Made by a program: the position numbers and the translations under genes. This document shows positions 18,604 through 48,429 of a DNA stretch of 64,000 nucleotides, in pieces. The first letter of the stretch is position 1. Every line of letters starts with the position of its first letter. The notes beneath the pieces are model-generated. The model did no database searches. It was not told where the DNA came from and was given only the letters and a program-made list of their open reading frames with translations. Source of the stretch: a virus; the IMG/VR virus record IMGVR_UViG_3300050196_000225, positions 1 to 64,000 of that record, one strand, 5' to 3'.

Positions 18604-18798
18604 TCACGGTGCTTTTGGTTCGGTTGCGACGTGTTGATTGTCTTGTGCTGACGTTGGCTGTGGGTTGGCGCTTTTCTCTTGTTCCTTTGTTCTGACGCTG
18701 TAGATCGCCTGTGTTGTTCCTTTGGAGAACTCGTAGATTGATCCGTTTTCCATTGTCATGGTCAGGATGTCGATGTTGACTTTCATTGGCGTCACCAT
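18604..18798 (-). CDS. hypothetical small protein
   Basis: 64-aa ORF. ATG 18786 is an alternative start. It overlaps or abuts the upstream gene's stop. Confidence 0.45.
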   Translation of the reverse strand: MVTPMKVNIDILTMTMENGSIYEFSKGTTQAIYSVRTKEQEKSANPQPTSAQDNQHVATEPKAP

Positions 18799-19331
18799 GC
18801 TTGGTCCGCTTGTGTTTTGGGTTGATCCTGGTTCTGAGGTTTGCCTGGCAGCTCAGCCTTGTTGATTTTTCTCCTGTAGGTTGAATTTGGTGGCACTTCC
18901 GATCCAGCGCTGGCGGTTTTCCTCCAATTGCCCGATCTCATCAATTTCTCGTCTTCTGGTTCGAGGATGTCGTCTGTGTCCAGACAGATGTAGTCTGGCA
19001 TTGGATCGAATGGGCCGATCTTTCTCCTGTAAAGAATGTCGTCGCGATGGAGCCTGGCTTCCTCCACCCTTTCGCCTTGTGCTTTGCTGTCCTCCCAGCC
19101 GAAGTCGCATCGAAACTGGTCGCCTGGCCTGATGACGTCGTCGGGCTTCAGGAACCGGTATTGCTCTTTTCGGATGACTGACACGTCTCTTGCGTCGAGG
19201 CCGACGGACAGCTCGACCTCACGCCACTCTTTTGAATCTGCGAAGATTTTGTCGCCTGGCTTGATGATCTCGTGTGCTGCCAGCTTTCTGTAGCCTACTG
19301 GCACGGTTATTACGCTTGTTTCGTATGCCAT
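18792..19331 (-). CDS. repeat-module protein with a PKT..D.AW tail
   Basis: 179 aa with three units of about 50 aa: GYRKLAAHEIIKPGDKIF..W, YRFLKPDDVIRPGDQF..W, and DYICLDTDDILEPEDEKL..W. Ends DQPKTQADQAW. Confidence 0.6.
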   Translation of the reverse strand: MAYETSVITVPVGYRKLAAHEIIKPGDKIFADSKEWREVELSVGLDARDVSVIRKEQYRFLKPDDVIRPGDQFRCDFGWEDSKAQGERVEEARLHRDDILYRRKIGPFDPMPDYICLDTDDILEPEDEKLMRSGNWRKTASAGSEVPPNSTYRRKINKAELPGKPQNQDQPKTQADQAW

Positions 19332-19385
19332 TGTTTTGCTCTCGTGAAACTTTCGAAATTGGGTTCGCCTGGCAGCTCAGGCTTC

Positions 19386-19907
19386 TTACCAGGCGTCGTC
19401 GGTGATGGTTTTGGGTTTGTCGGGGCTGAAAGTTGGCCCGCTCTTTCTGGCGAATATGTAGTTGGCGGTGGCTTTGCCGCCTTTCGGAGAGTGCTGACGG
19501 CCGTCCTTGCTTATCGCAAAGTCAGTGACGAAAACTTGCCCACCTTCGTTGATCCACTCATAGTTATTTGGCGGCGCCGGCTCGATCATTGGGTTGGCTT
19601 CTTTGCCGGTTGTCATGCCGAGCGCTGCGAGAATTGGCTTGTCGGTCCATTCGTCGTTCTTCCAAAGAAGCATGCCTTCTTTGACTTGAGCTGGATGATT
19701 GACTGGTCTGTAGCCTGGCGGTGCGCCATCTGGGTTGGGCCTGGCTGTGAGCTTAGCGTTGCTGTCCAGCAGTGATTTGCCCAGTTCCGAAGGCACAGAC
19801 TCACGCCATTGCCCTACATCAGGCAGCCATAACAGGTCCAGCGCCTTCACATAACCGTTGTGGACAATGCGGTAGCCGGGCGGAAGTGTTTTGTGCATCT
19901 TGATCAC
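19386..19907 (-). CDS. repeat-module protein with a PKT..D.AW tail
   Basis: 173 aa with repeats PPGYRIVHNGYV..W..W, PPGYRPVNHPAQVKEGMLLW..W and PPNNYEWINEGG. Ends DKPKTITDDAW. Confidence 0.6.
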   Translation of the reverse strand: MIKMHKTLPPGYRIVHNGYVKALDLLWLPDVGQWRESVPSELGKSLLDSNAKLTARPNPDGAPPGYRPVNHPAQVKEGMLLWKNDEWTDKPILAALGMTTGKEANPMIEPAPPNNYEWINEGGQVFVTDFAISKDGRQHSPKGGKATANYIFARKSGPTFSPDKPKTITDDAW

Positions 19908-20338
19908 CAGGCTTCTCCTTCATCAACGATGGTTTTGGGTTTGTCGGCGCGCTTGCGCTCGATCTCGATCATGACCGGGCACGCCACGCACTTCCACTGG
20001 TAACCGCGGCCGCAGGACAGGTCGGTCGTTTCCGGGCCGCAGCCTTCCTCGACCATGCGTTTCCAGTGACGGCCATCGCGGTTGGTGGGTGGCAAGTGTT
20101 TGGCCTTCCACCAGTTTTCGCCAAGCACGTCGGGATCGACACCCCGGTCAGGGTCAGGCTGGGCCTGCCTGATGATGCCCGCGAAGCTGGAGACTCCCAG
20201 ATTCAGGAAGGTCGATCGGTTGTCGATGTCGCTCCAAGTTTTTTGCGCCTCGTTCCAGCGTCTGTCGCCATGCTTGGGAAAGCCTTCAATGACCTTCACC
20301 CAGCCTGTTGGTATAGCTCCATGTGTGTCTTGTGTCAT
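19904..20338 (-). CDS. protein with a PKT..D.AW tail
   Basis: 144 aa with N-terminal IPTGWVKVIEGFPKHGDRRW..W. Ends DKPKTIVDEGEAW. GTGA overlap with the next gene. Confidence 0.6.
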   Translation of the reverse strand: MTQDTHGAIPTGWVKVIEGFPKHGDRRWNEAQKTWSDIDNRSTFLNLGVSSFAGIIRQAQPDPDRGVDPDVLGENWWKAKHLPPTNRDGRHWKRMVEEGCGPETTDLSCGRGYQWKCVACPVMIEIERKRADKPKTIVDEGEAW

Positions 20339-24873: not shown

Positions 24874-25218
24874 TTACCAGACTTCACCAGTCTGTGTCGC
24901 GGGTCTGTGAGGCGCGACCGGCCTGGTTGGTTTGACCGGCGCAATCAGGCGCTCGACCGGCTCGACATTGAGCAATCCAAGCCCGACCTTCCACTTGTGT
25001 CCTGGCACGAGCGAGTCGCCTGTCTCGCTGCAGGAGGCGGTCTTCTGGTTGATCTTGTCGATGTGAACTCGCCTGACGCCGCCTTCGTTGTCTCTGAAGG
25101 TGGCATATCGCCCGCGCATCACGCGCGTGTCCAGGCGCTGATCAAGGAGCTTGTCAACTTCCGCCTTGATCTTCTTCAAGGCGTCTGTCGATAGCAGGGC
25201 AAATTTTGAGAGGTCCAT
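24874..25218 (-). CDS. hypothetical protein (tail ...RPATQTGEVW)
   Basis: 114 aa from ATG 25218 (MDLSKFALLSTDALKKIKAEVDKLL...). The track ORF starts further upstream. Confidence 0.5.
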   Translation of the reverse strand: MDLSKFALLSTDALKKIKAEVDKLLDQRLDTRVMRGRYATFRDNEGGVRRVHIDKINQKTASCSETGDSLVPGHKWKVGLGLLNVEPVERLIAPVKPTRPVAPHRPATQTGEVW

Positions 25219-25241
25219 TGCGTTTCCATTTGACGGGTTGT

Positions 25242-25278
25242 CCAATTTCAAGCAGCCCAACAGACGGCTTGAAATTGG
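25242..25278. promoter_or_regulatory. 11-bp inverted repeat
   Basis: ccaatttcaag-N15-cttgaaattgg, in the spacer between 25308 and 25218. Confidence 0.4.
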
Positions 25279-25307
25279 GTGGAGCTTGCGCCCCACCCCT
25301 CCCCGCT

Positions 25308-30558: not shown

Positions 30559-30867
30559 TCAGACGCGCTGAATTTTCAAGTCCAAGTTCGTCGGGCCGCT
30601 CAGACTCAGGGTCGTGTAGTGGCGGCCGCTGATCGTGGTTTTGCCCTTCTTGACCAGCCCGGCGTTCACCATGCGCCCGATGTAGACCATCATTGAAGCA
30701 AATGGGATCATGGTGCCTGCGCAGATTTCCTCATAGAGGCATTCTGGGTGGTTGGCCAGGTATCGCAAGATCGTGTGGCTGCGTCTGGTAAGAACGAAGA
30801 ACGTGCCCGTTCTGGTGTCGAAGGCCACGTTGTAGCTGCTCGCCAATAGCTCGGTCGATTTGGTCAT
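30559..30867 (-). CDS. winged-helix (MarR-like) DNA-binding protein
   Basis: 102 aa. ILRYLANHPECLYEEICAGT...MVYIGRMVNAGLVKKGK fits the wHTH pattern. Confidence 0.5.
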   Translation of the reverse strand: MTKSTELLASSYNVAFDTRTGTFFVLTRRSHTILRYLANHPECLYEEICAGTMIPFASMMVYIGRMVNAGLVKKGKTTISGRHYTTLSLSGPTNLDLKIQRV

Positions 30868-31340
30868 TTTTCCAACTCCTTCAACTCCAGATAAAACTCG
30901 TGATAGCGCACCACGCGCTCCACGTCCTTCTTGGTCACACCCTTGAGACGACGGATGTCGCTGTTGTGGCGCAGGTCCGCCATTTTCACCTTTCGCGCAT
31001 CCGAGTTGCGCTTGACCTGGGCCTTGTAGTCCTCATAGGACAGGCCGGGGCGCTTGGTCAGGGCGTAGATGCCGGCGACGATCCGCTCCGTGAAGCCCTT
31101 GTCCCGCAGGAGCTTGATGCCAACCCGGACATCGTCAAAGCAGTCCTTCAGGATGTCGTGCCCGATGGCAATGCACAGCACTTCCTCATCGTCGGACTTG
31201 GTGTAGTGCATCACCTTCAGGCAGTGCAGGATGTAGGGCTTGCCCGCCTTGTCCTTCTTGCCGCGAAACAGGTTTGTGGTCAGATGGATCATCGAGTCAA
31301 GCATGTCGCCAGGCTGGATGACGGTGTGAGGCTCGTTCAT
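30864..31340 (-). CDS. SpoT/Mesh1-type HD-domain small alarmone hydrolase
   Basis: 158 aa. GKPYILHCLKV, IAIGHDILKDCF (the HD motif), ALTKRPG and KVKMADLRHNSD match the (p)ppGpp-hydrolase HD pattern. Confidence 0.65.
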   Translation of the reverse strand: MNEPHTVIQPGDMLDSMIHLTTNLFRGKKDKAGKPYILHCLKVMHYTKSDDEEVLCIAIGHDILKDCFDDVRVGIKLLRDKGFTERIVAGIYALTKRPGLSYEDYKAQVKRNSDARKVKMADLRHNSDIRRLKGVTKKDVERVVRYHEFYLELKELEK

Positions 31341-31468
31341 TTGTTCACCTTGGCCCGTAGTTCGTTGGCGTCTTTCTCCAGCTCGCGGTATTCAGCCAGA
31401 GTGATGTCTGGATCGCGCCTGGCCGCAGCCATGACACGGTCGATGATCCAGTTGAGGAAGCGCTTCAT
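31337..31468 (-). CDS. hypothetical small protein (43 aa)
   Basis: Hand-translated as MKRFLNWIIDRVMAAARRDPDITLAEYRELEKDANELRAKVNK. ATGA overlaps at both ends. Confidence 0.4.
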   Translation of the reverse strand: MKRFLNWIIDRVMAAARRDPDITLAEYRELEKDANELRAKVNK

Positions 31469-32079
31469 GTGGCCGCCCGCAGTCGGTCAAAGGTGGCCCC
31501 GTCAATGCCCAGGGCCTCCAGCCAGGTGTGGAAGTAGAGGTTCAGCTCCTCGCTGCGCTCGTGAGTGCCGTAGTGGTGAGCCAAGAAGTCCTTGTAGTTC
31601 TGCACCTTGTCGGCCACCAGCATCATGCGAACTTCAGGCAGCACGCCGGGAGTGGGCTCGCCGATGCACTCGTAGTTCTCCACCGCCTTCCGCCTTCCGC
31701 CGTCCTCGTCGTAGCTGTAGGAGCTGGCATCGACCACCTTGTCGGACAGCCACTCGTTCGCTCGGGCGCGGTATTCCATCGCCAACATCACCATGCGCGG
31801 GCTGAACTGATCCATGTTGCCGGCGTAGACCTTGATCAGATCGTCATTGTGTTGGAACAGCGGGTGCAGACAGTAGGCCCGAGCCGCAGTCATTGCTGTG
31901 CTCCAGCCAGCTTTGGAGCCTTCCACTTGCATCAGCTCGAAGATGATGGCGATGCCTTCGTTGATGTGATTGATCAGCGGCACGCCCGAGCGCTTGGCGC
32001 AGCGGTCGCCATAGGCGTGCTGGACGGCCACATATTCGGGGGTCTGCTGGATCAACTCGATGGGTTTCTTGCCGCTCAT
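31465..32079 (-). CDS. hypothetical protein (possible degenerate HD-fold)
   Basis: 204 aa. The spacing of PLINHINEG, AYCLHPLF and LVADKVQN is reminiscent of HD hydrolases, but there is no clear HD dyad. Confidence 0.3.
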   Translation of the reverse strand: MSGKKPIELIQQTPEYVAVQHAYGDRCAKRSGVPLINHINEGIAIIFELMQVEGSKAGWSTAMTAARAYCLHPLFQHNDDLIKVYAGNMDQFSPRMVMLAMEYRARANEWLSDKVVDASSYSYDEDGGRRKAVENYECIGEPTPGVLPEVRMMLVADKVQNYKDFLAHHYGTHERSEELNLYFHTWLEALGIDGATFDRLRAAT

Positions 32080-33163: not shown

Positions 33164-33692
33164 CGTTCCATCCCATCCAGTGAGACATCATTGCCATTGC
33201 ATGATTTCGCGCCGCTTTGCATTGCTCCACGTCGAACATCCCGATGTGACAGTCCTCGACCTTGATGCCCATGCGCTTTGCAAGCTCTGCATAGGCCCTC
33301 TTTCGGGCTGCACCTCGGTTCTTCTGACGCATCCACAGACGGTCGAAAACCTCATGCGCTTTCTGTTTCGCGGACCTCAAAGAAGCGTTTGCAAGCCGCC
33401 CCAATGGGCGCGTGCCGTCGCCGTAACCGATGTTTGGTGCGTGACACCCGACATAGGCATCGCACGGCTGGCACTGCCAGAAATTCTTCTTCTTGAGGTC
33501 GTCGCGATGTGGGTAGATGATGAACCCTGAAACCAGGCGCGCGGGCTGTCCGCAGTAGGAACAAATGACGCTCACGTCACGTCCTTGAACTCTTCCACCA
33601 GGGCAAGGCACCAGGCGAGGCGCCCAGCCAACCTGGTTGGCTCGTCTTGCGAACGGGCATTCAGGGCATGGTTTGGCGCAGGGCTTGTTCAT
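33141..33692 (-). CDS. zinc-finger protein (DUF3268-like)
   Basis: 183 aa. CSYCGQ...FWQCQPCDAYVGCH...PLGRLANASLRSAKQKAHEVFDRLW fits a phage Zn-finger family as I recall it. Confidence 0.4.
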   Translation of the reverse strand: MNKPCAKPCPECPFARRANQVGWAPRLVPCPGGRVQGRDVSVICSYCGQPARLVSGFIIYPHRDDLKKKNFWQCQPCDAYVGCHAPNIGYGDGTRPLGRLANASLRSAKQKAHEVFDRLWMRQKNRGAARKRAYAELAKRMGIKVEDCHIGMFDVEQCKAARNHAMAMMSHWMGWNDEQPQHR

Positions 33693-34279
33693 GCTGCCTC
33701 CTTCACGTCATGACAGTTGCGAAAGTCGGCGATGCCTTTGAGGCCGACAGGCAGCTCGTAGAAGCCGCGCTCCAGGCCGCGAAAGAAGCACTCCGCGGTG
33801 ACCTCACAGTCATACTCTGCACCGTGCGCTTTGGACGTGTCATAAGGGACGCCCAGCGCGAAGCACAGCTCGCCAAGTCGGGGCATTTTGCCGTCAGGGC
33901 ATGCCCATCGCGCGTTCTCCATCGTGCAAAGCGAGTAGACGTCTGGCACCTTGCGACCAACGCGAATCAGCTCACCTGCGATGAAGGGGCCATCGAAGCC
34001 CATGTTGTGCGCCACGGCCAGGTCAAGCGCACTCATGCGGCGCACGATCTCGTCGGCTGTGTCCTCCCATATCGGGCAGCCAACCAACTCCTCATAGCTG
34101 ATGCCATGCACGGCTTGCGCACCTGGCTCGATGGGCTGCTGCGGGTCAAAGCGCTGCACCCACACGTCCTCCAGCTTGCGCGTGGTCAGGTCATAAGTGA
34201 GCAGGGCCAGCTCGATGATCTTGGCGCCCTTCTCTTGCTTGAGGCCCGTCGTTTCAGTGTCGAGTATTCCAATTTTCAT
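33689..34279 (-). CDS. DEDDh 3'-5' exonuclease (DnaQ/epsilon-like)
   Basis: ExoI ILDTETTGL, ExoII VAHNMGFDGPFI and ExoIII HGAEYDCEV. Confidence 0.85.
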   Translation of the reverse strand: MKIGILDTETTGLKQEKGAKIIELALLTYDLTTRKLEDVWVQRFDPQQPIEPGAQAVHGISYEELVGCPIWEDTADEIVRRMSALDLAVAHNMGFDGPFIAGELIRVGRKVPDVYSLCTMENARWACPDGKMPRLGELCFALGVPYDTSKAHGAEYDCEVTAECFFRGLERGFYELPVGLKGIADFRNCHDVKEAA

Positions 34280-34794
34280 GCTGATTGTGCTTCCAGGTCT
34301 TGTTTGATGGCGGCTTGAACGTGGCCGAGCAGCTTCTTCATGTGGGCGTATTCAGGATTCGACTTCTTCGGGTAGCGATACCAAAACTCGTCGCCGAAGA
34401 CCTCAGAGAACAGGCGCTCGCGGCTCCAGCAGTCAACACCGATGGCGTCGTCCCACAAGTCGCGGGCCTGTCGCTTTGTGATGCCACCCTCCTTGCGCTT
34501 GCGGAGGATTTCCTTCTTCAAGACCGGCCACAGGCCGTCTTCGTCATCGTCGTCAATCTCTTCGCGCAGGAAGGGACAGAACTTGTCGATCAGATAGCCC
34601 TTGTCGCACTTCAGGAAGAACTCCTTGATGGGGCGACCAGCGTGGCTCCAGTAGTAGCTCCACGCCTTGTTGAACTGAGTGATCGTGACCTTGCCGGACG
34701 TAGGCGTGTAGGGTTCGATCATCACGGCGATGGCATCGAAGTGCTCCAGGTCCGTGATGGTCAGCTTCTCGATGGTGGACTTGCTGACGTTCAT
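34276..34794 (-). CDS. hypothetical protein
   Basis: 172-aa ORF. ATGA overlap. Confidence 0.55.
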   Translation of the reverse strand: MNVSKSTIEKLTITDLEHFDAIAVMIEPYTPTSGKVTITQFNKAWSYYWSHAGRPIKEFFLKCDKGYLIDKFCPFLREEIDDDDEDGLWPVLKKEILRKRKEGGITKRQARDLWDDAIGVDCWSRERLFSEVFGDEFWYRYPKKSNPEYAHMKKLLGHVQAAIKQDLEAQSA

Positions 34795-35117
34795 TTGGTC
34801 TCCAAGTAGAAGCCGCAGTGGTCATCCGTTTGTTCGTCTGGCGCAGGGCCAGTTGGCGGCACGCGAGGCCACCAGCGGTCGGTCCACCAGATCCTTTCGG
34901 TGCATTTGCCCCAAATTTCTCCAGCACTTATCGCCGCCACAGCTGCCTCCTCCCTGTCGAAGGCATATCGCGACCAGTTATTGCCATCCCACCAGCGAAG
35001 CATGTGAATGTCACGGATACAGCTTGCTGGCCACCAGCCAATCTCAGGAGGCGGGCCAGATCGCCAAACGCAGTTGCGCGACAATGGCGGCTTGATGTAG
35101 TTTGGGTTCTTGGCCAT
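34791..35117 (-). CDS. hypothetical Trp-rich protein
   Basis: 108-aa ORF. ATGA overlap. Confidence 0.5.
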   Translation of the reverse strand: MAKNPNYIKPPLSRNCVWRSGPPPEIGWWPASCIRDIHMLRWWDGNNWSRYAFDREEAAVAAISAGEIWGKCTERIWWTDRWWPRVPPTGPAPDEQTDDHCGFYLETK

Positions 35118-35596
35118 CAGAATTTCTCCACGTCAGCGTAGGGCTCTGGTTTGCTGTCCAGCAATTTGCCAAGCAGAACATCAAGGTCATTGGCCCTGGA
35201 CAGAGGGTTAGCCGCAGCGAGCTGGCGAGCTTCGACCTGCGCTGGCCAACTGTCTGCATGAGGCAAGGCCGGCAAACGAGCGCCTGGGTCCAGCATGGCG
35301 TCAACCCAATCTTTTGCTTCTTTGAGTCCGAGCCCGACAACGGTGCGGACATGCTTGATCTGCGGCACCTTGCCAAGCGAACCCATGTGGCGAACTTCCC
35401 GCACCAACTCAAAGACATGCTCCTCATGAGTCTTGCTGATGCGCGATGACGCCGAGCCCGAGTGCAGTGCCAGAAAGGCCTCTGGTGCCGCTTTGGCCAG
35501 GCCCAGCGCGATCGCTCTGTAGTCAATCACTGCGCTGCCAGTGACAAGGTCGATGACCTTTGCGTAGGCTTCTTTCAAAATTTTCCCCTTAACCAA
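35117..35596 (-). CDS. protein containing a ribosomal L7/L12 C-terminal-domain-like segment
   Basis: 159 aa. [24 protein letters not shown] compares with E. coli L7/L12 [24 protein letters not shown], including nine identical consecutive residues (GLGLKEAKD). The TTG start is uncertain. Confidence 0.6.
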   Translation of the reverse strand: [159 protein letters not shown]

Positions 35597-35597
35597 A

Positions 35598-35639
35598 ACG
35601 GTTTATAGCTCAATCACTAATGACTGAAGTATAAACCGT
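35598..35639. promoter_or_regulatory. 10-bp inverted repeat enclosing a palindrome-family variant
   Basis: acggtttata / tataaaccgt flank gctcaatcactaatgactgaag. It lies between NAMPT and the L12-like gene. Confidence 0.5.
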
Positions 35640-35673
35640 CATGCTTGGATTGCAAGCACAACGGTCAGGACTA

Positions 35674-37077
35674 TCAGAGGTAGCCTGCTGCCTTCGCAGC
35701 GCTTTCGCGGACTTCTGCAAGCGTCGTCCAGTTCGCACCGACGCCGTTCATGTAAACAACCTGCATGGCGTCACCCGTGCCCGTGTCGGACCAGCGGCGG
35801 CCTTCGGACTCGCGCATCGTCATCAGCTGGCCCGCGTCGCGCACCGTGATCAGGCGGCCCTTGAGCGAAGCCTTGCCAGGGTCGGTGATCGGGTCTTTGA
35901 AAACGTCACGCCACTCGCCGTTGACCTTAGCTGCGCAGCACTTCATGGCAAAGCCATAGTTGTCGCGATTGACTTGCTGCAGCAGCCCGCCACCCATGCC
36001 GAAGGCGATGTTGTCGGCAGAGAAGCCATGCTCCTTCAACTTCTGCAAGATGTCGTGAATGGAGTCAGGCCCATCAATGCCGTCGCCCTGGATCAGGCGC
36101 ACATGGTTCAGGACTTTGAAGCCCTTGCTGTTGAGCGTGCAGCCAAAGCGATCGGCCAGGAGGGTGGCGATGCGGGGCAGCACTTCCAGAGGGTCACCAC
36201 TGTCAGGGCGGATCACCACGGTTGCGCCGCTGTCGATCACTTCCTGGCGCAATTCTTGACCCCACAGCGCATCACAGGCATGGTCAATGTCGTAGCTGTC
36301 GGAGACAACAGCCAGCACCTTGCCAGGTTTGGCGAATTGCTTAAGCATGTTGCGATAGGCGGCAACCTCACCCTCGCGACCCCAGGCTGTGATGGTGCTG
36401 TGCTCCGCTGCAGGGATCGAGAAGCCCGCCATGAACTCGCCGTAATACTGACGGGCGGCCACGATGGCTTCGATCGTGTCAGAACCGAGGAAGTTGACCA
36501 AGTGTGCCATCCCGCCCATTTCAGCGGACTCGCCCGATGAAGTGCCGCGGGCGCCGAAGTCGTGCAGCTTGAAGGGCAGACCGCTCATGTCGTCGGCAGT
36601 CTCTTCGAGAAACTCAGCAATCACAGACTTGCACTGCAAGCTCTTGGTGGCAACCGTGGTGGGATACCACACGCGCAGCAGCAGCGTTTCCAGCCAGCCG
36701 CCCACCCAGGCCAGGTCCGGGTCATTAGGCGTCTCGACGATGGCCAGTGCCACACCTTGAGGCACGATCGAGCCTTCGGGCAGCGCCTTGATGGTCACGG
36801 GCATGTAGCCGCCGTGAACTTCCACGATCTTGAGCCAGCCATCGGTATTGAAGGGCACGCCATAGTTACCGTAGAACTCAGACGCTTCACGCACCTGCTC
36901 GGCCGTCACGGGCTTGAGCAGGTATTTCTGGATGATGGCTTGCAGACCAAACCACAGGACTTCACCACCCTTGCGCGCCACGATGTAGCTTTGCTTGGCC
37001 GTGGTGTCAGGTGGATCTTGCAGGTAGTGGCTGGGCTTGTAGCCGTCGGTGGCGTAGAGGATGTTTTTGTCGGTCAT
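35674..37077 (-). CDS. nadV: nicotinamide phosphoribosyltransferase (NAMPT/NadV)
   Basis: 467 aa from ATG 37077 (GAAAGGAAC RBS). N-terminal YATDGYKPSHY, and NAMPT-like in overall length and pattern. Confidence 0.85.
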   Translation of the reverse strand: MTDKNILYATDGYKPSHYLQDPPDTTAKQSYIVARKGGEVLWFGLQAIIQKYLLKPVTAEQVREASEFYGNYGVPFNTDGWLKIVEVHGGYMPVTIKALPEGSIVPQGVALAIVETPNDPDLAWVGGWLETLLLRVWYPTTVATKSLQCKSVIAEFLEETADDMSGLPFKLHDFGARGTSSGESAEMGGMAHLVNFLGSDTIEAIVAARQYYGEFMAGFSIPAAEHSTITAWGREGEVAAYRNMLKQFAKPGKVLAVVSDSYDIDHACDALWGQELRQEVIDSGATVVIRPDSGDPLEVLPRIATLLADRFGCTLNSKGFKVLNHVRLIQGDGIDGPDSIHDILQKLKEHGFSADNIAFGMGGGLLQQVNRDNYGFAMKCCAAKVNGEWRDVFKDPITDPGKASLKGRLITVRDAGQLMTMRESEGRRWSDTGTGDAMQVVYMNGVGANWTTLAEVRESAAKAAGYL

Positions 37078-37253
37078 GGTGTGGGTTCCTTTCGGTTGTC
37101 GATGGACAGGTGCTCGGTGGTTTTCAGCCACCTGCGCACGGTTGAAGCGCTTTTTCCAGCGGATCTGGCAATCTCAGCGACGGACTGCCCAGAGTTGAAG
37201 CAGTTCCTGGCCGCCAAGAGAGCGCAAACTCGTTTGAAGCTCAGCGACGCCAT
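37074..37253 (-). CDS. small HTH protein (59 aa)
   Basis: Hand-translated as MASLSFKRVCALLAARNCFNSGQSVAEIARSAGKSASTVRRWLKTTEHLSIDNRKEPTP. It has a classic HTH and an ATGA overlap with nadV. Confidence 0.5.
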   Translation of the reverse strand: MASLSFKRVCALLAARNCFNSGQSVAEIARSAGKSASTVRRWLKTTEHLSIDNRKEPTP

Positions 37254-37256
37254 AGC

Positions 37257-38330
37257 TCAGGCGGGCTGGTTGTTGAGCATCTGCTGGACGAGATGCCAGT
37301 GGTCCGAGAAGAACTCGGGCTTGAGCTTGTCGAGGTCGGCGATGGCGACCCAATCAGCCCATTCGGCGTCATCGCCAGCGACGGGCTTGATCTTTTCTTC
37401 GGCCTTCGCGATGTAGTAGCCAAAGACGTGCGACACCGTGCGAACGCCAAGCGAGCGGCCGGGCGCGTCAGCAAGGAAGTAACCGAACGGGTTGGCTTTG
37501 AACTCGCGCCACTCGACGTTGATGCCGGTCTCTTCGATGCCTTCGCGAACGGCGCATTGACGCAAGCGCTCGCCCTTGTTCAAGAACCCGCCAGGCAGGG
37601 CATACGTGCCATTGCCGATCTTGCCCTTGCGGCGAATGAGCAGAATGTGCGTGCGACTTTGGATGAAGAGGTCGGCGGCCAGGCTGGGTTGCCAGCCGTA
37701 AAGGCGGGTGATGTCGTTCTCGGACTGCTTGAAGCGCTCCTGCACTGCGCTCATTTCTTCGCACAGGCGATTCACGCGCTCGTGGTCTGTCTCCAAAACG
37801 ATGGAGTAGACCTTCGGGTCGAGCATGTTGATCCAGGCGTCGTTTTCGCCAGACGGGTTCTCGGCGAAGAGAGCCTTGCGAATGTCGGTGGCGTCAGGGC
37901 GAACCTTGCCGACATCAGCGCTCATGCCAGGCGGCGAGTCGATGACCAGCGCCGGGATTTCATGCAGCGGCCAATGGAACAGGTTCAGGTAGTAGCTGGA
38001 CTCGTCTTTGTTGTGCCCGACCAGAATGATTTCCGAGTTCTTGTCGGCGTAGAGACTTACCATGCCCTGCACGCTGGCCGCCCACTCATGATCGTCGTAT
38101 GGAGCGTCCAACACCGACGTGATGTAGCACTTCCAACCCAGCTCCGGCATGGCGTGCATGATCATTTCCTTGCGCTCAGCGACGGTCCAGGGGTCTTTGC
38201 AGGTGCGGGCGCAACCCGTGTCGCCAATGACGATGATCACCTTGTCAGCAACCTTGGCCGCTTCGTTGATCACGTGCAGGTGGCCGTTGTGAAAGGGCTG
38301 GAAGCGCCCGATGACGATGGCTGTTTTCAT
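37257..38330 (-). CDS. bifunctional NMN adenylyltransferase / Nudix hydrolase (NadM-Nudix, NatV-like)
   Basis: N-terminal IGRFQPFHNGH nucleotidyltransferase motif. C-terminal Nudix box GGFLNKGERLRQCAVREGIEETG. Confidence 0.85.
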   Translation of the reverse strand: MKTAIVIGRFQPFHNGHLHVINEAAKVADKVIIVIGDTGCARTCKDPWTVAERKEMIMHAMPELGWKCYITSVLDAPYDDHEWAASVQGMVSLYADKNSEIILVGHNKDESSYYLNLFHWPLHEIPALVIDSPPGMSADVGKVRPDATDIRKALFAENPSGENDAWINMLDPKVYSIVLETDHERVNRLCEEMSAVQERFKQSENDITRLYGWQPSLAADLFIQSRTHILLIRRKGKIGNGTYALPGGFLNKGERLRQCAVREGIEETGINVEWREFKANPFGYFLADAPGRSLGVRTVSHVFGYYIAKAEEKIKPVAGDDAEWADWVAIADLDKLKPEFFSDHWHLVQQMLNNQPA

Positions 38331-47828: not shown

Positions 47829-48113
47829 TCACCACTGGTCTGTCCGTGTCTTGGGCTTGTCGCTGTCACTTGACTTAGACGAAATTGAGGCTATGGTGAT
47901 GGTGGGTTTTGGCATCAACGGCGTCAAGATGGCTTTGTAATTGCCAGCCGCTAAGTGCTCCGTCAGCTCCTGACTTAGATCATCAGCCTCAATTTCCATC
48001 GTGACGAATCTCCTACCCACCGCAGGCACTGGATACATGGTCCCAAGCACACGAATTGGCACACGGTCCTCGTGGATCTCAAAGCTCTTAATTCGAACCT
48101 CAGTAATCACCAT
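47829..48113 (-). CDS. hypothetical protein with a PKT..D.W tail
   Basis: 94 aa, ending DKPKTRTDQW. Confidence 0.55.
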   Translation of the reverse strand: MVITEVRIKSFEIHEDRVPIRVLGTMYPVPAVGRRFVTMEIEADDLSQELTEHLAAGNYKAILTPLMPKPTITIASISSKSSDSDKPKTRTDQW

Positions 48114-48397
48114 GCGTCCTTATCGACGGTTTTTGGAATGTCGACGTTCGTCTTTTTAGTTGCCATCGCCGCGTAGGCATTGGCATTGGCGTCTACGATA
48201 TGGCTTTCATCGAAAACGATACTGTCAAATGCCTTGCCTCGAATCTTCCCGTCAGACGCCGGTATAAATGGCAGATCTGTGAGAATTGAGCTTTTTTCAG
48301 TGAGCATGTCGATCATTTCCTGCGTCAAGGTCACTTTGCCAATGCGACGGCCACCAGTTGTCACTGTGCCCCTGAGTCGCTTTTTGTCATCTGTCAT
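48107..48397 (-). CDS. hypothetical protein with a PKT..D.AW tail
   Basis: 96 aa from ATG 48397, ending DIPKTVDKDAW. Confidence 0.55.
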   Translation of the reverse strand: MTDDKKRLRGTVTTGGRRIGKVTLTQEMIDMLTEKSSILTDLPFIPASDGKIRGKAFDSIVFDESHIVDANANAYAAMATKKTNVDIPKTVDKDAW

Positions 48398-48429
48398 CAC
48401 TGAAATTCCAGTAGAAGCGTTTGTCTAAG

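Follow-up and report, generated by a model that had tools for sequence, protein, structure and literature searches.

A small gene on the minus strand of a phage genome encodes a protein that keeps the a4-a5 hairpin of the ribosomal protein bL12 (L7/L12), amounting to 29 of the 67 positions of the C-terminal domain (CTD) model and no full CTD. The gene lies in the window, i.e., the whole stretch of 64,000 nucleotides that was analyzed. We tentatively read its product, at somewhat less than an even chance, as a tethered adaptor that would bind translational GTPases weakly, rather than as a free decoy. The adaptor reading is favored because the kept segment is exactly the mapped factor-binding site of L12 and, K65 excepted, the residues of its factor face are kept in at least 89% of the members of an apparently undescribed phage family.

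The earlier note had described a 159-residue open reading frame at 35117-35596. The frame is indeed open on the minus strand, and its start is the part that had to be revised. Translation probably begins at the TTG at 35578, six codons into the frame, giving 153 residues, because AAGGGG stands 6 nt upstream and relatives begin at the same point; the longer start at 35596 has no Shine-Dalgarno sequence. The gene was called on 4 Logan contigs. The gene and the parts of its product are as follows.

35117 to 35578, minus strand: gene of the L12-hairpin protein, 153 aa, probable true start TTG 35578.
35585 to 35590, minus strand: Shine-Dalgarno-like AAGGGG, 6 nt before TTG 35578 (sequence).
35459 to 35578, minus strand: N-terminal three-helix domain, conserved, consensus EAY..VID....DY..IA..LAK..P..F, no known family.
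35375 to 35428, minus strand: extra helix in place of the beta-sheet of L12 (AlphaFold helices 51-68 and 3-20; family consensus).
35300 to 35371, minus strand: bL12 a4-a5 hairpin, equivalent to E. coli K65-E88, the GTPase-binding site in L12 (Pfam, PSSM, HHalign; superposition on 2zjq_5).
35156 to 35203, minus strand: C-terminal amphipathic helix (L..LL..L pattern in relatives; AlphaFold).
35120 to 35152, minus strand: acidic tail with an aromatic end, of a type common to other small proteins of the source genome (tail PSSM, end-residue counts).

The similarity to L7/L12 reported earlier held up. Residues 76-99 of the protein align with K65-E88 of E. coli L12 with 16 identities in 24 positions, the run GLGLKEAKD included. 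PF00542 (Ribosomal_L12, cut-off 25.9 bits) matched at 30.8 bits (E 3.8e-7) over model positions 9-36 of 67, and this was the sole such match in the source genome. With a PSSM built from 72 true bL12 proteins the hairpin segment scored 40.3, compared with a maximum of 7.3 among 2000 shuffles. HHalign of the family against true bL12 gave a P of 98.6% over 29 columns, and PDB bL12 chains were matched at E 1e-5 to 1e-2. A contig scan for L12 returned mostly true rplL genes, which served as a control set. We judge from these sequence comparisons that the similarity is not due to chance.

The similarity is confined to the hairpin. HHalign found no match between the C-terminal part of the family and the rest of the L12 CTD. 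The absence of an L10-binding N-terminal domain, also put forward in the earlier note, was confirmed: the N-domain of the family aligned with the 72 true bL12 N-domains at an HHalign P of 0.2%, the same as the reversed control, the N-terminal dimerization/uL10-binding domain PF16320 had no Pfam match in 33 members, and a PDB profile search with the N-domain returned no bL12 up to E 10. A gapless alignment made by eye had tempted us to regard the N-domain as a diverged L12 N-terminal domain, and HHalign and HMM scores ruled this out. Because the N-domain and full-CTD tests failed, the protein is not a bL12. The remainder of the protein has no relation to L12, as had been stated, and is itself conserved in the family.

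AlphaFold predicted the full protein to be all helical (helices at residues 2-13, 20-30, 32-39, 51-68, 70-81, 85-96, 113-122 and 126-141) and an isolated 52-residue piece to form a three-helix bundle with a pLDDT of 90. No beta-strand was present in either model. The segment HVFELVREV, previously taken for the strand preceding the hairpin, falls in helix 51-68 of the full model (pLDDT 81-92) and in helix 3-20 of the isolated piece, and the family consensus at this place has a helical pattern, unlike the EFDV strand of L12. It is thus predicted to be the helix that closes the three-helix bundle. Of the segment described as CTD-like, homology to the factor-binding region stands and the CTD fold does not, as the match ends at model position 36 of 67 and both the sheet and the third helix are missing.

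The hairpin superposes on L12 chain 2zjq_5 with 0.3 A over 21 residues (E 3.4), and no Foldseek match in the PDB or BFVD reached E 0.001. Of the profile and structure searches that had been proposed as a check, the profile search gave a significant match, whereas in structure the hairpin superposed and the whole domain had no significant match. A VIA-wide structure search returned background only, at Z 5-6 and with eL36 on top, which we did not take as homology; the best Z, 5.8 (rmsd 3.9, 49 aligned), is within the background for small helical bundles. The UBA-like or EF-Ts N-terminal three-helix domain was absent among the VIA and Foldseek matches listed, where small helical bundles give background scores. 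Searching the ESM Atlas by features yielded no usable match, and searching it by shape yielded other L12-annotated and hypothetical helical modules (TM 0.56-0.76). ClpS, which shares the L12 CTD fold, was considered and rejected: there was no ClpS Pfam match, the models are all helical, and the Foldseek ClpS rows had E 6-9 with an rmsd of about 8 A. A nickie row in BFVD is not a homologue. A phiPsa347 protein annotated much like the Pseudomonas phage REC1 gene "peptide chain release factor 1" appears among the structure-search rows; the REC1 gene itself (OK275491.1:28408-28518) has a weak hairpin match (E 0.07).

The protein belongs to a family that is apparently undescribed. A search of 1.84 billion representatives gave 398 matches, and of the 150 best, about 32 have alignments running from residue 8 to about residue 101; a word-based homologue search with the single query sequence returned only itself. 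After further searches the family comprised 56 sequences of 110-192 aa from uncultured nickie/SSU5-like phages, named "ribosomal protein L7/L12" or left unnamed in the source databases. Its members share the N-terminal helical domain and the hairpin bundle and usually the amphipathic helix and tail. With the N-domain alone as the query, we retrieved 24 family proteins (all the non-TPR matches, 110-192 aa) together with TPR false positives, and the eight new members among them all carried the hairpin (8/8). No full-length member was found in cultured phages or plasmids. PF00542 had no match in the cultured relatives nickie, JGB6, ANB28, SSU5 and RHEph10, and the gene is missing from all five. 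The best explanation is that it is an optional, non-essential accessory gene of nickie/SSU5-like phages.

Two further architectures were seen beside the family. An 87-aa protein (L012:5992-6252) has the N-domain and hairpin without the C-terminal helix or tail, and matches DUF6793 at positions 56-104. A viral protein in L035 (6001-6345) and L036 combines a weakly family-like N-terminal segment (E 1e-4) with a complete bL12 CTD (Pfam positions 4-65 of 67), and is a possible intermediate between the whole L12 CTD and the mini-domain.

Helices 4 and 5 of the L12 CTD are the site for IF2, EF-Tu, EF-G and RF3 (PMC6753160; for helices 4-5 also PMC3677378), and V66-V68, K70, L80 and E82 of L12 contact the G' domain of EF-G (PMC5887453). 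The retained hairpin is this mapped site, in agreement with the role that the earlier note had assigned to the region, and it is kept across the family. In the 56 members I69 is conserved in 95%, K70 in 95%, R73 in 98%, G79 in 95%, L80 in 96%, K81 in 95%, E82 in 89%, K84 in 96% and V/I66 in 100%, with D85 also within the 89-98% range of the factor-face residues. K65, kept in only 52%, is the exception. Nine or ten of the ten factor-face positions are kept in 48/54 members. The positions replaced in the family are V68 (A in 95%), V72 (C, H or L), L78 (W or M) and L86 (Y). We take these to be the positions that pack on the sheet in 1CTF. The pattern fits a hairpin that was re-housed against the new helix and kept its outer face. 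Some of this conservation may have structural reasons, as at the G79-L80 turn, or be an ascertainment effect, most members having first been retrieved with the full sequence.

The query itself departs from the family in several ways. It has Q at position 68, a two-residue insertion before the hairpin and a tail weaker than that of its relatives, and its 90% cluster holds only 4 sequences. These features would suit a family member that is decaying or is carried as a neutral passenger, but the reading frame is intact and preceded by a Shine-Dalgarno-like site, all ten factor-face residues (K65, V66, I69, K70, R73, G79, L80, K81, E82 and K84) are present, and the N-domain scores 65 bits with the family profile. 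We regard decay as very improbable.

The adaptor reading can be laid out as follows. The protein has three parts, namely the N-terminal helical domain, the three-helix mini-domain with the bL12 a4-a5 hairpin, and the C-terminal helix with its acidic-aromatic tail. The hairpin would still bind, weakly, the acidic G/G' surface of host EF-G, EF-Tu, IF2 and RF3, and the N-domain, the tail or both would fix the protein to a partner, which might be a host complex, a phage protein or a further copy of the protein itself. In effect it would be a stalk head with another anchor, and would either concentrate factors locally or keep a factor at the partner instead of titrating factors in bulk. Two points count against bulk titration: the isolated L12 CTD has a weak affinity for translation factors, and cells contain EF-Tu and EF-G in great abundance. 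The drift of K65, the atypical Q68 of the query and the five cultured relatives without the gene speak against the adaptor. A complex prediction for the mini-domain and the G domain of Delftia EF-G, both given as alignments and run without controls, reached 0.04 compared with a mark of 0.32 and counts neither for nor against binding.

According to the earlier note, the protein might instead be a free decoy that soaks up translational GTPases, or one that distracts a host immune sensor or effector recognizing L12 or EF-Tu, as part of a counter-defense block. The intact factor face and the lack of an L10-binding domain are compatible with this. A tethered role is nevertheless likelier because of the two other conserved parts, N-domain and tail, which a plain sponge would not need, and because of the weak factor binding by the isolated L12 CTD. 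Our searches found no L12-sensing defense system.

The neighborhood of the gene also bears on the decoy, which we hold to be improbable.

33689 to 34279, minus strand: DEDDh (DnaQ-like) exonuclease, the conserved downstream neighbor (Pfam, relatives' loci).
34276 to 34794, minus strand: phiTE_072-like protein, frequently encoded between the exonuclease and the family gene (relatives' loci).
35612 to 35655, minus strand: between NAMPT and the L12-hairpin gene, a sigma70-like site (TTGCAA-16-TATACT) and, after it, one copy of the palindrome AGTCA-N4-TGAYT.
35674 to 38330, minus strand: NAMPT and NadM-Nudix genes (NARP2 type), adjacent here and not a conserved neighbor (Pfam, relatives' loci).

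NAD+ genes do adjoin the gene, and the HD hydrolase does lie within about 5 kb of it (3.8 kb away), as previously noted. The surroundings had been viewed as a block for host takeover or counter-defense, and this did not survive comparison with relatives. NAMPT/NadM stands next to the family gene in only 1/9 relatives with long flanks and the HD hydrolase is near it in 2/6 loci with DNA, whereas the DEDDh exonuclease lies downstream in 11/11 informative loci, and in 9 of these at most one gene intervenes; a promoter-like site also separates the gene from NAMPT. The context argument fails because the conserved neighbor is the exonuclease and not the NAD+ genes. Given the 1/9 linkage and the varied upstream genes, we interpret the family gene as bordering a variable region, with an incidental tie to the NAD+ genes. 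Such a region, with NARP2 here and RtcB and/or an Rnl2-like RNA ligase upstream in 6/8 relatives, is in turn a point for the decoy, as is the possibility that the gene has its own promoter. Just upstream of the family gene in the related phages L052, L175, L176 and L177 are genes for RtcB, Rnl2-like RNA ligase, Band_7 and tiny prepilin-like proteins.

The sigma70-like match alone is at chance level (1 found, 1.3 expected). The AGTCA-N4-TGAYT palindrome is found genome-wide and had 22 strand-matches in the window, at 1173-57897, compared with 0.2 expected; it is probably a genome-wide operator or promoter element. Several copies run straight into TATACT, a -10-like hexamer. Upstream of the L12-hairpin gene, the palindrome lies inside an inverted repeat at 35603-35634 (arms ACGGTTTATA / TATAAACCGT) that also overlaps the -10 box. 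The HD hydrolase, a 158-aa protein (30864-31340), is only a putative alarmone hydrolase: SpoT/Mesh1 hydrolases have HDxxED, and its identity is unproven because it has weak Pfam HD/HD_4 scores only and reads HDILKD instead. Its 204-aa neighbor (31465-32079) looks like a degenerate relative (phrog_21276).

The source record, 112,104 bases long, has terminal repeats and represents a complete phage genome. Its terminase shares 59-62% identity with the nickie, RHEph10 and SSU5 terminases, and its DnaE shares 61% with DnaE on Acinetobacter plasmids of about 107-113 kb. Its ParA is 72% identical to that of a Polaromonas plasmid, a match that suggests a host in the Comamonadaceae.

The tail of the protein is of a kind found elsewhere in this genome. 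An aromatic residue occurs within the last two positions in 51/56 members, as DEGxF or KT..W. When the 1792 reading frames of the genome were ranked with a PSSM built from 42 homologue tails, the query's own end came first, and the top 11 included four small PKT..W-tailed proteins at 48107, 19386, 19904 and 18792. W is at the end of 12/149 called genes of the source genome, compared with a W frequency of 1.4%. The stretches 18792-20338, 24874-25296 and 47829-48400 encode small proteins whose tails, PKT..W or similar, belong to the class of the family tail. A bolder proposal, to which we give little chance, is that the a4-a5 hairpin is an independent three-helix GTPase-catching module of phages and bacteria, joined here to a portable acidic-aromatic address tail of the clade, and that the result is a ribosome-independent "stalk" that would gather host factors on a phage-made partner.

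The mini-domain recurs across hundreds of bacterial and phage architectures that are unrelated to one another, and it overlaps Pfam DUF6793 (PF20593). Outside the family, 592 occurrences of the helix-plus-hairpin unit were retrieved, and 188 proteins carried two to five copies. An N-terminal hydrophobic helix opens 123 of these 188, suggesting that the module is usually displayed tethered and multivalent. In P0005, a 953-aa protein, six full-length L12-CTD-like repeats precede a long region of helical repeats.

This mobility raises the prospect that the mini-domain comes from L12 and has acquired a new partner, such as uL11 or the ribosomal GTPase center, RNA or another acidic protein, or that it is a general basic interaction module. 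The L12 CTD also contacts uL11 (PMC3677378), K65 drifts, and 53/54 members are nearer the bacterial repeat module than true bL12, in a comparison biased by retrieval of the repeats with the family. A module with a new partner would not be expected, however, to hold nearly the whole GTPase-facing set at 89% or more in phage and bacterial copies alike. We consider a new partner rather unlikely, and still prefer the adaptor.

Many "L7/L12" annotations in phages and bacteria denote a 50-residue helical module with the factor-binding face only, and not whole domains. The mini-domain is small, predicted to be well folded and directly testable as a construct. If it binds GTPases, it would be a natural minimal stalk head and would account for the repeat proteins, which are unstudied and number in the hundreds; otherwise the "L7/L12" annotation misleads for every one of them. 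We found no paper naming DUF6793 or describing the three-helix module, and none on the reduction to such a module, on the L12-hairpin family or on its link to the tail of the clade.

The idea of an L12-factor interface in phage proteins is not new. Mizuno 2019 (PMC6375957) described bL12 domains, variably placed in larger proteins, in seven cultured phages (RSB3, DFL12phi1, DSS3P2, phiCB2047-B, FSL SP-058/076 and Ea9-2), and proposed them to be interfaces for translation factors. One such protein of a Salmonella phage was detected in 70S preparations by one peptide, and its tagged form could not be purified with ribosomes (PMC6375957). The query meets the loose definition of a phage bL12-domain protein, as PF00542 scores above the cut-off in a phage gene and related phages lack the gene. 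Like the proteins of that study, in some of which the L12 match makes up only 9-25%, it has an L12-derived segment without the cellular N-terminal domain in an otherwise unrelated phage protein that not all related phages carry. The phages of Mizuno 2019 are podoviruses of 45-76 kb, whereas the present family is found in nickie/SSU5-like phages of about 102-112 kb and has its own N-domain and tail. Mizuno 2019 treats the matches as bL12 domains; in our family the sheet and third helix are absent and a helix stands in their place.

Compared with bL12 itself (rplL; CTD, PF00542, PDB 1CTF), the query shares the a4-a5 sequence, its geometry and the factor-facing residues, and differs in lacking the N-terminal dimerization domain, a hinge to a full CTD, beta-strands, the third helix and a place in an rplJ-rplL operon. 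The bacterial "ribosomal protein L7/L12" repeat proteins (DUF6793) have the same helix-plus-hairpin mini-domain, with A68 and Y86, usually in two to five tandem copies mostly behind a membrane anchor, whereas members of the phage family carry a single copy, flanked by the tail and by an N-domain private to the family. Single-hairpin proteins are also present in cultured phages, namely gp3 of Streptomyces phage EGole with its relatives and gp08 of Ruegeria phage vB_RpoP-V13; as in the query, the Pfam match is limited, here to model positions 5-37, and the context is helical. Their N-terminal parts are unrelated to that of the family. V13 gp08 is among the first genes, before the RNA polymerase. 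EGole gp3 is a terminal-repeat gene, and throughout the EGole/Samisti12 group of Streptomyces phages both terminal repeats encode the single-hairpin protein (L005:2246-2686).
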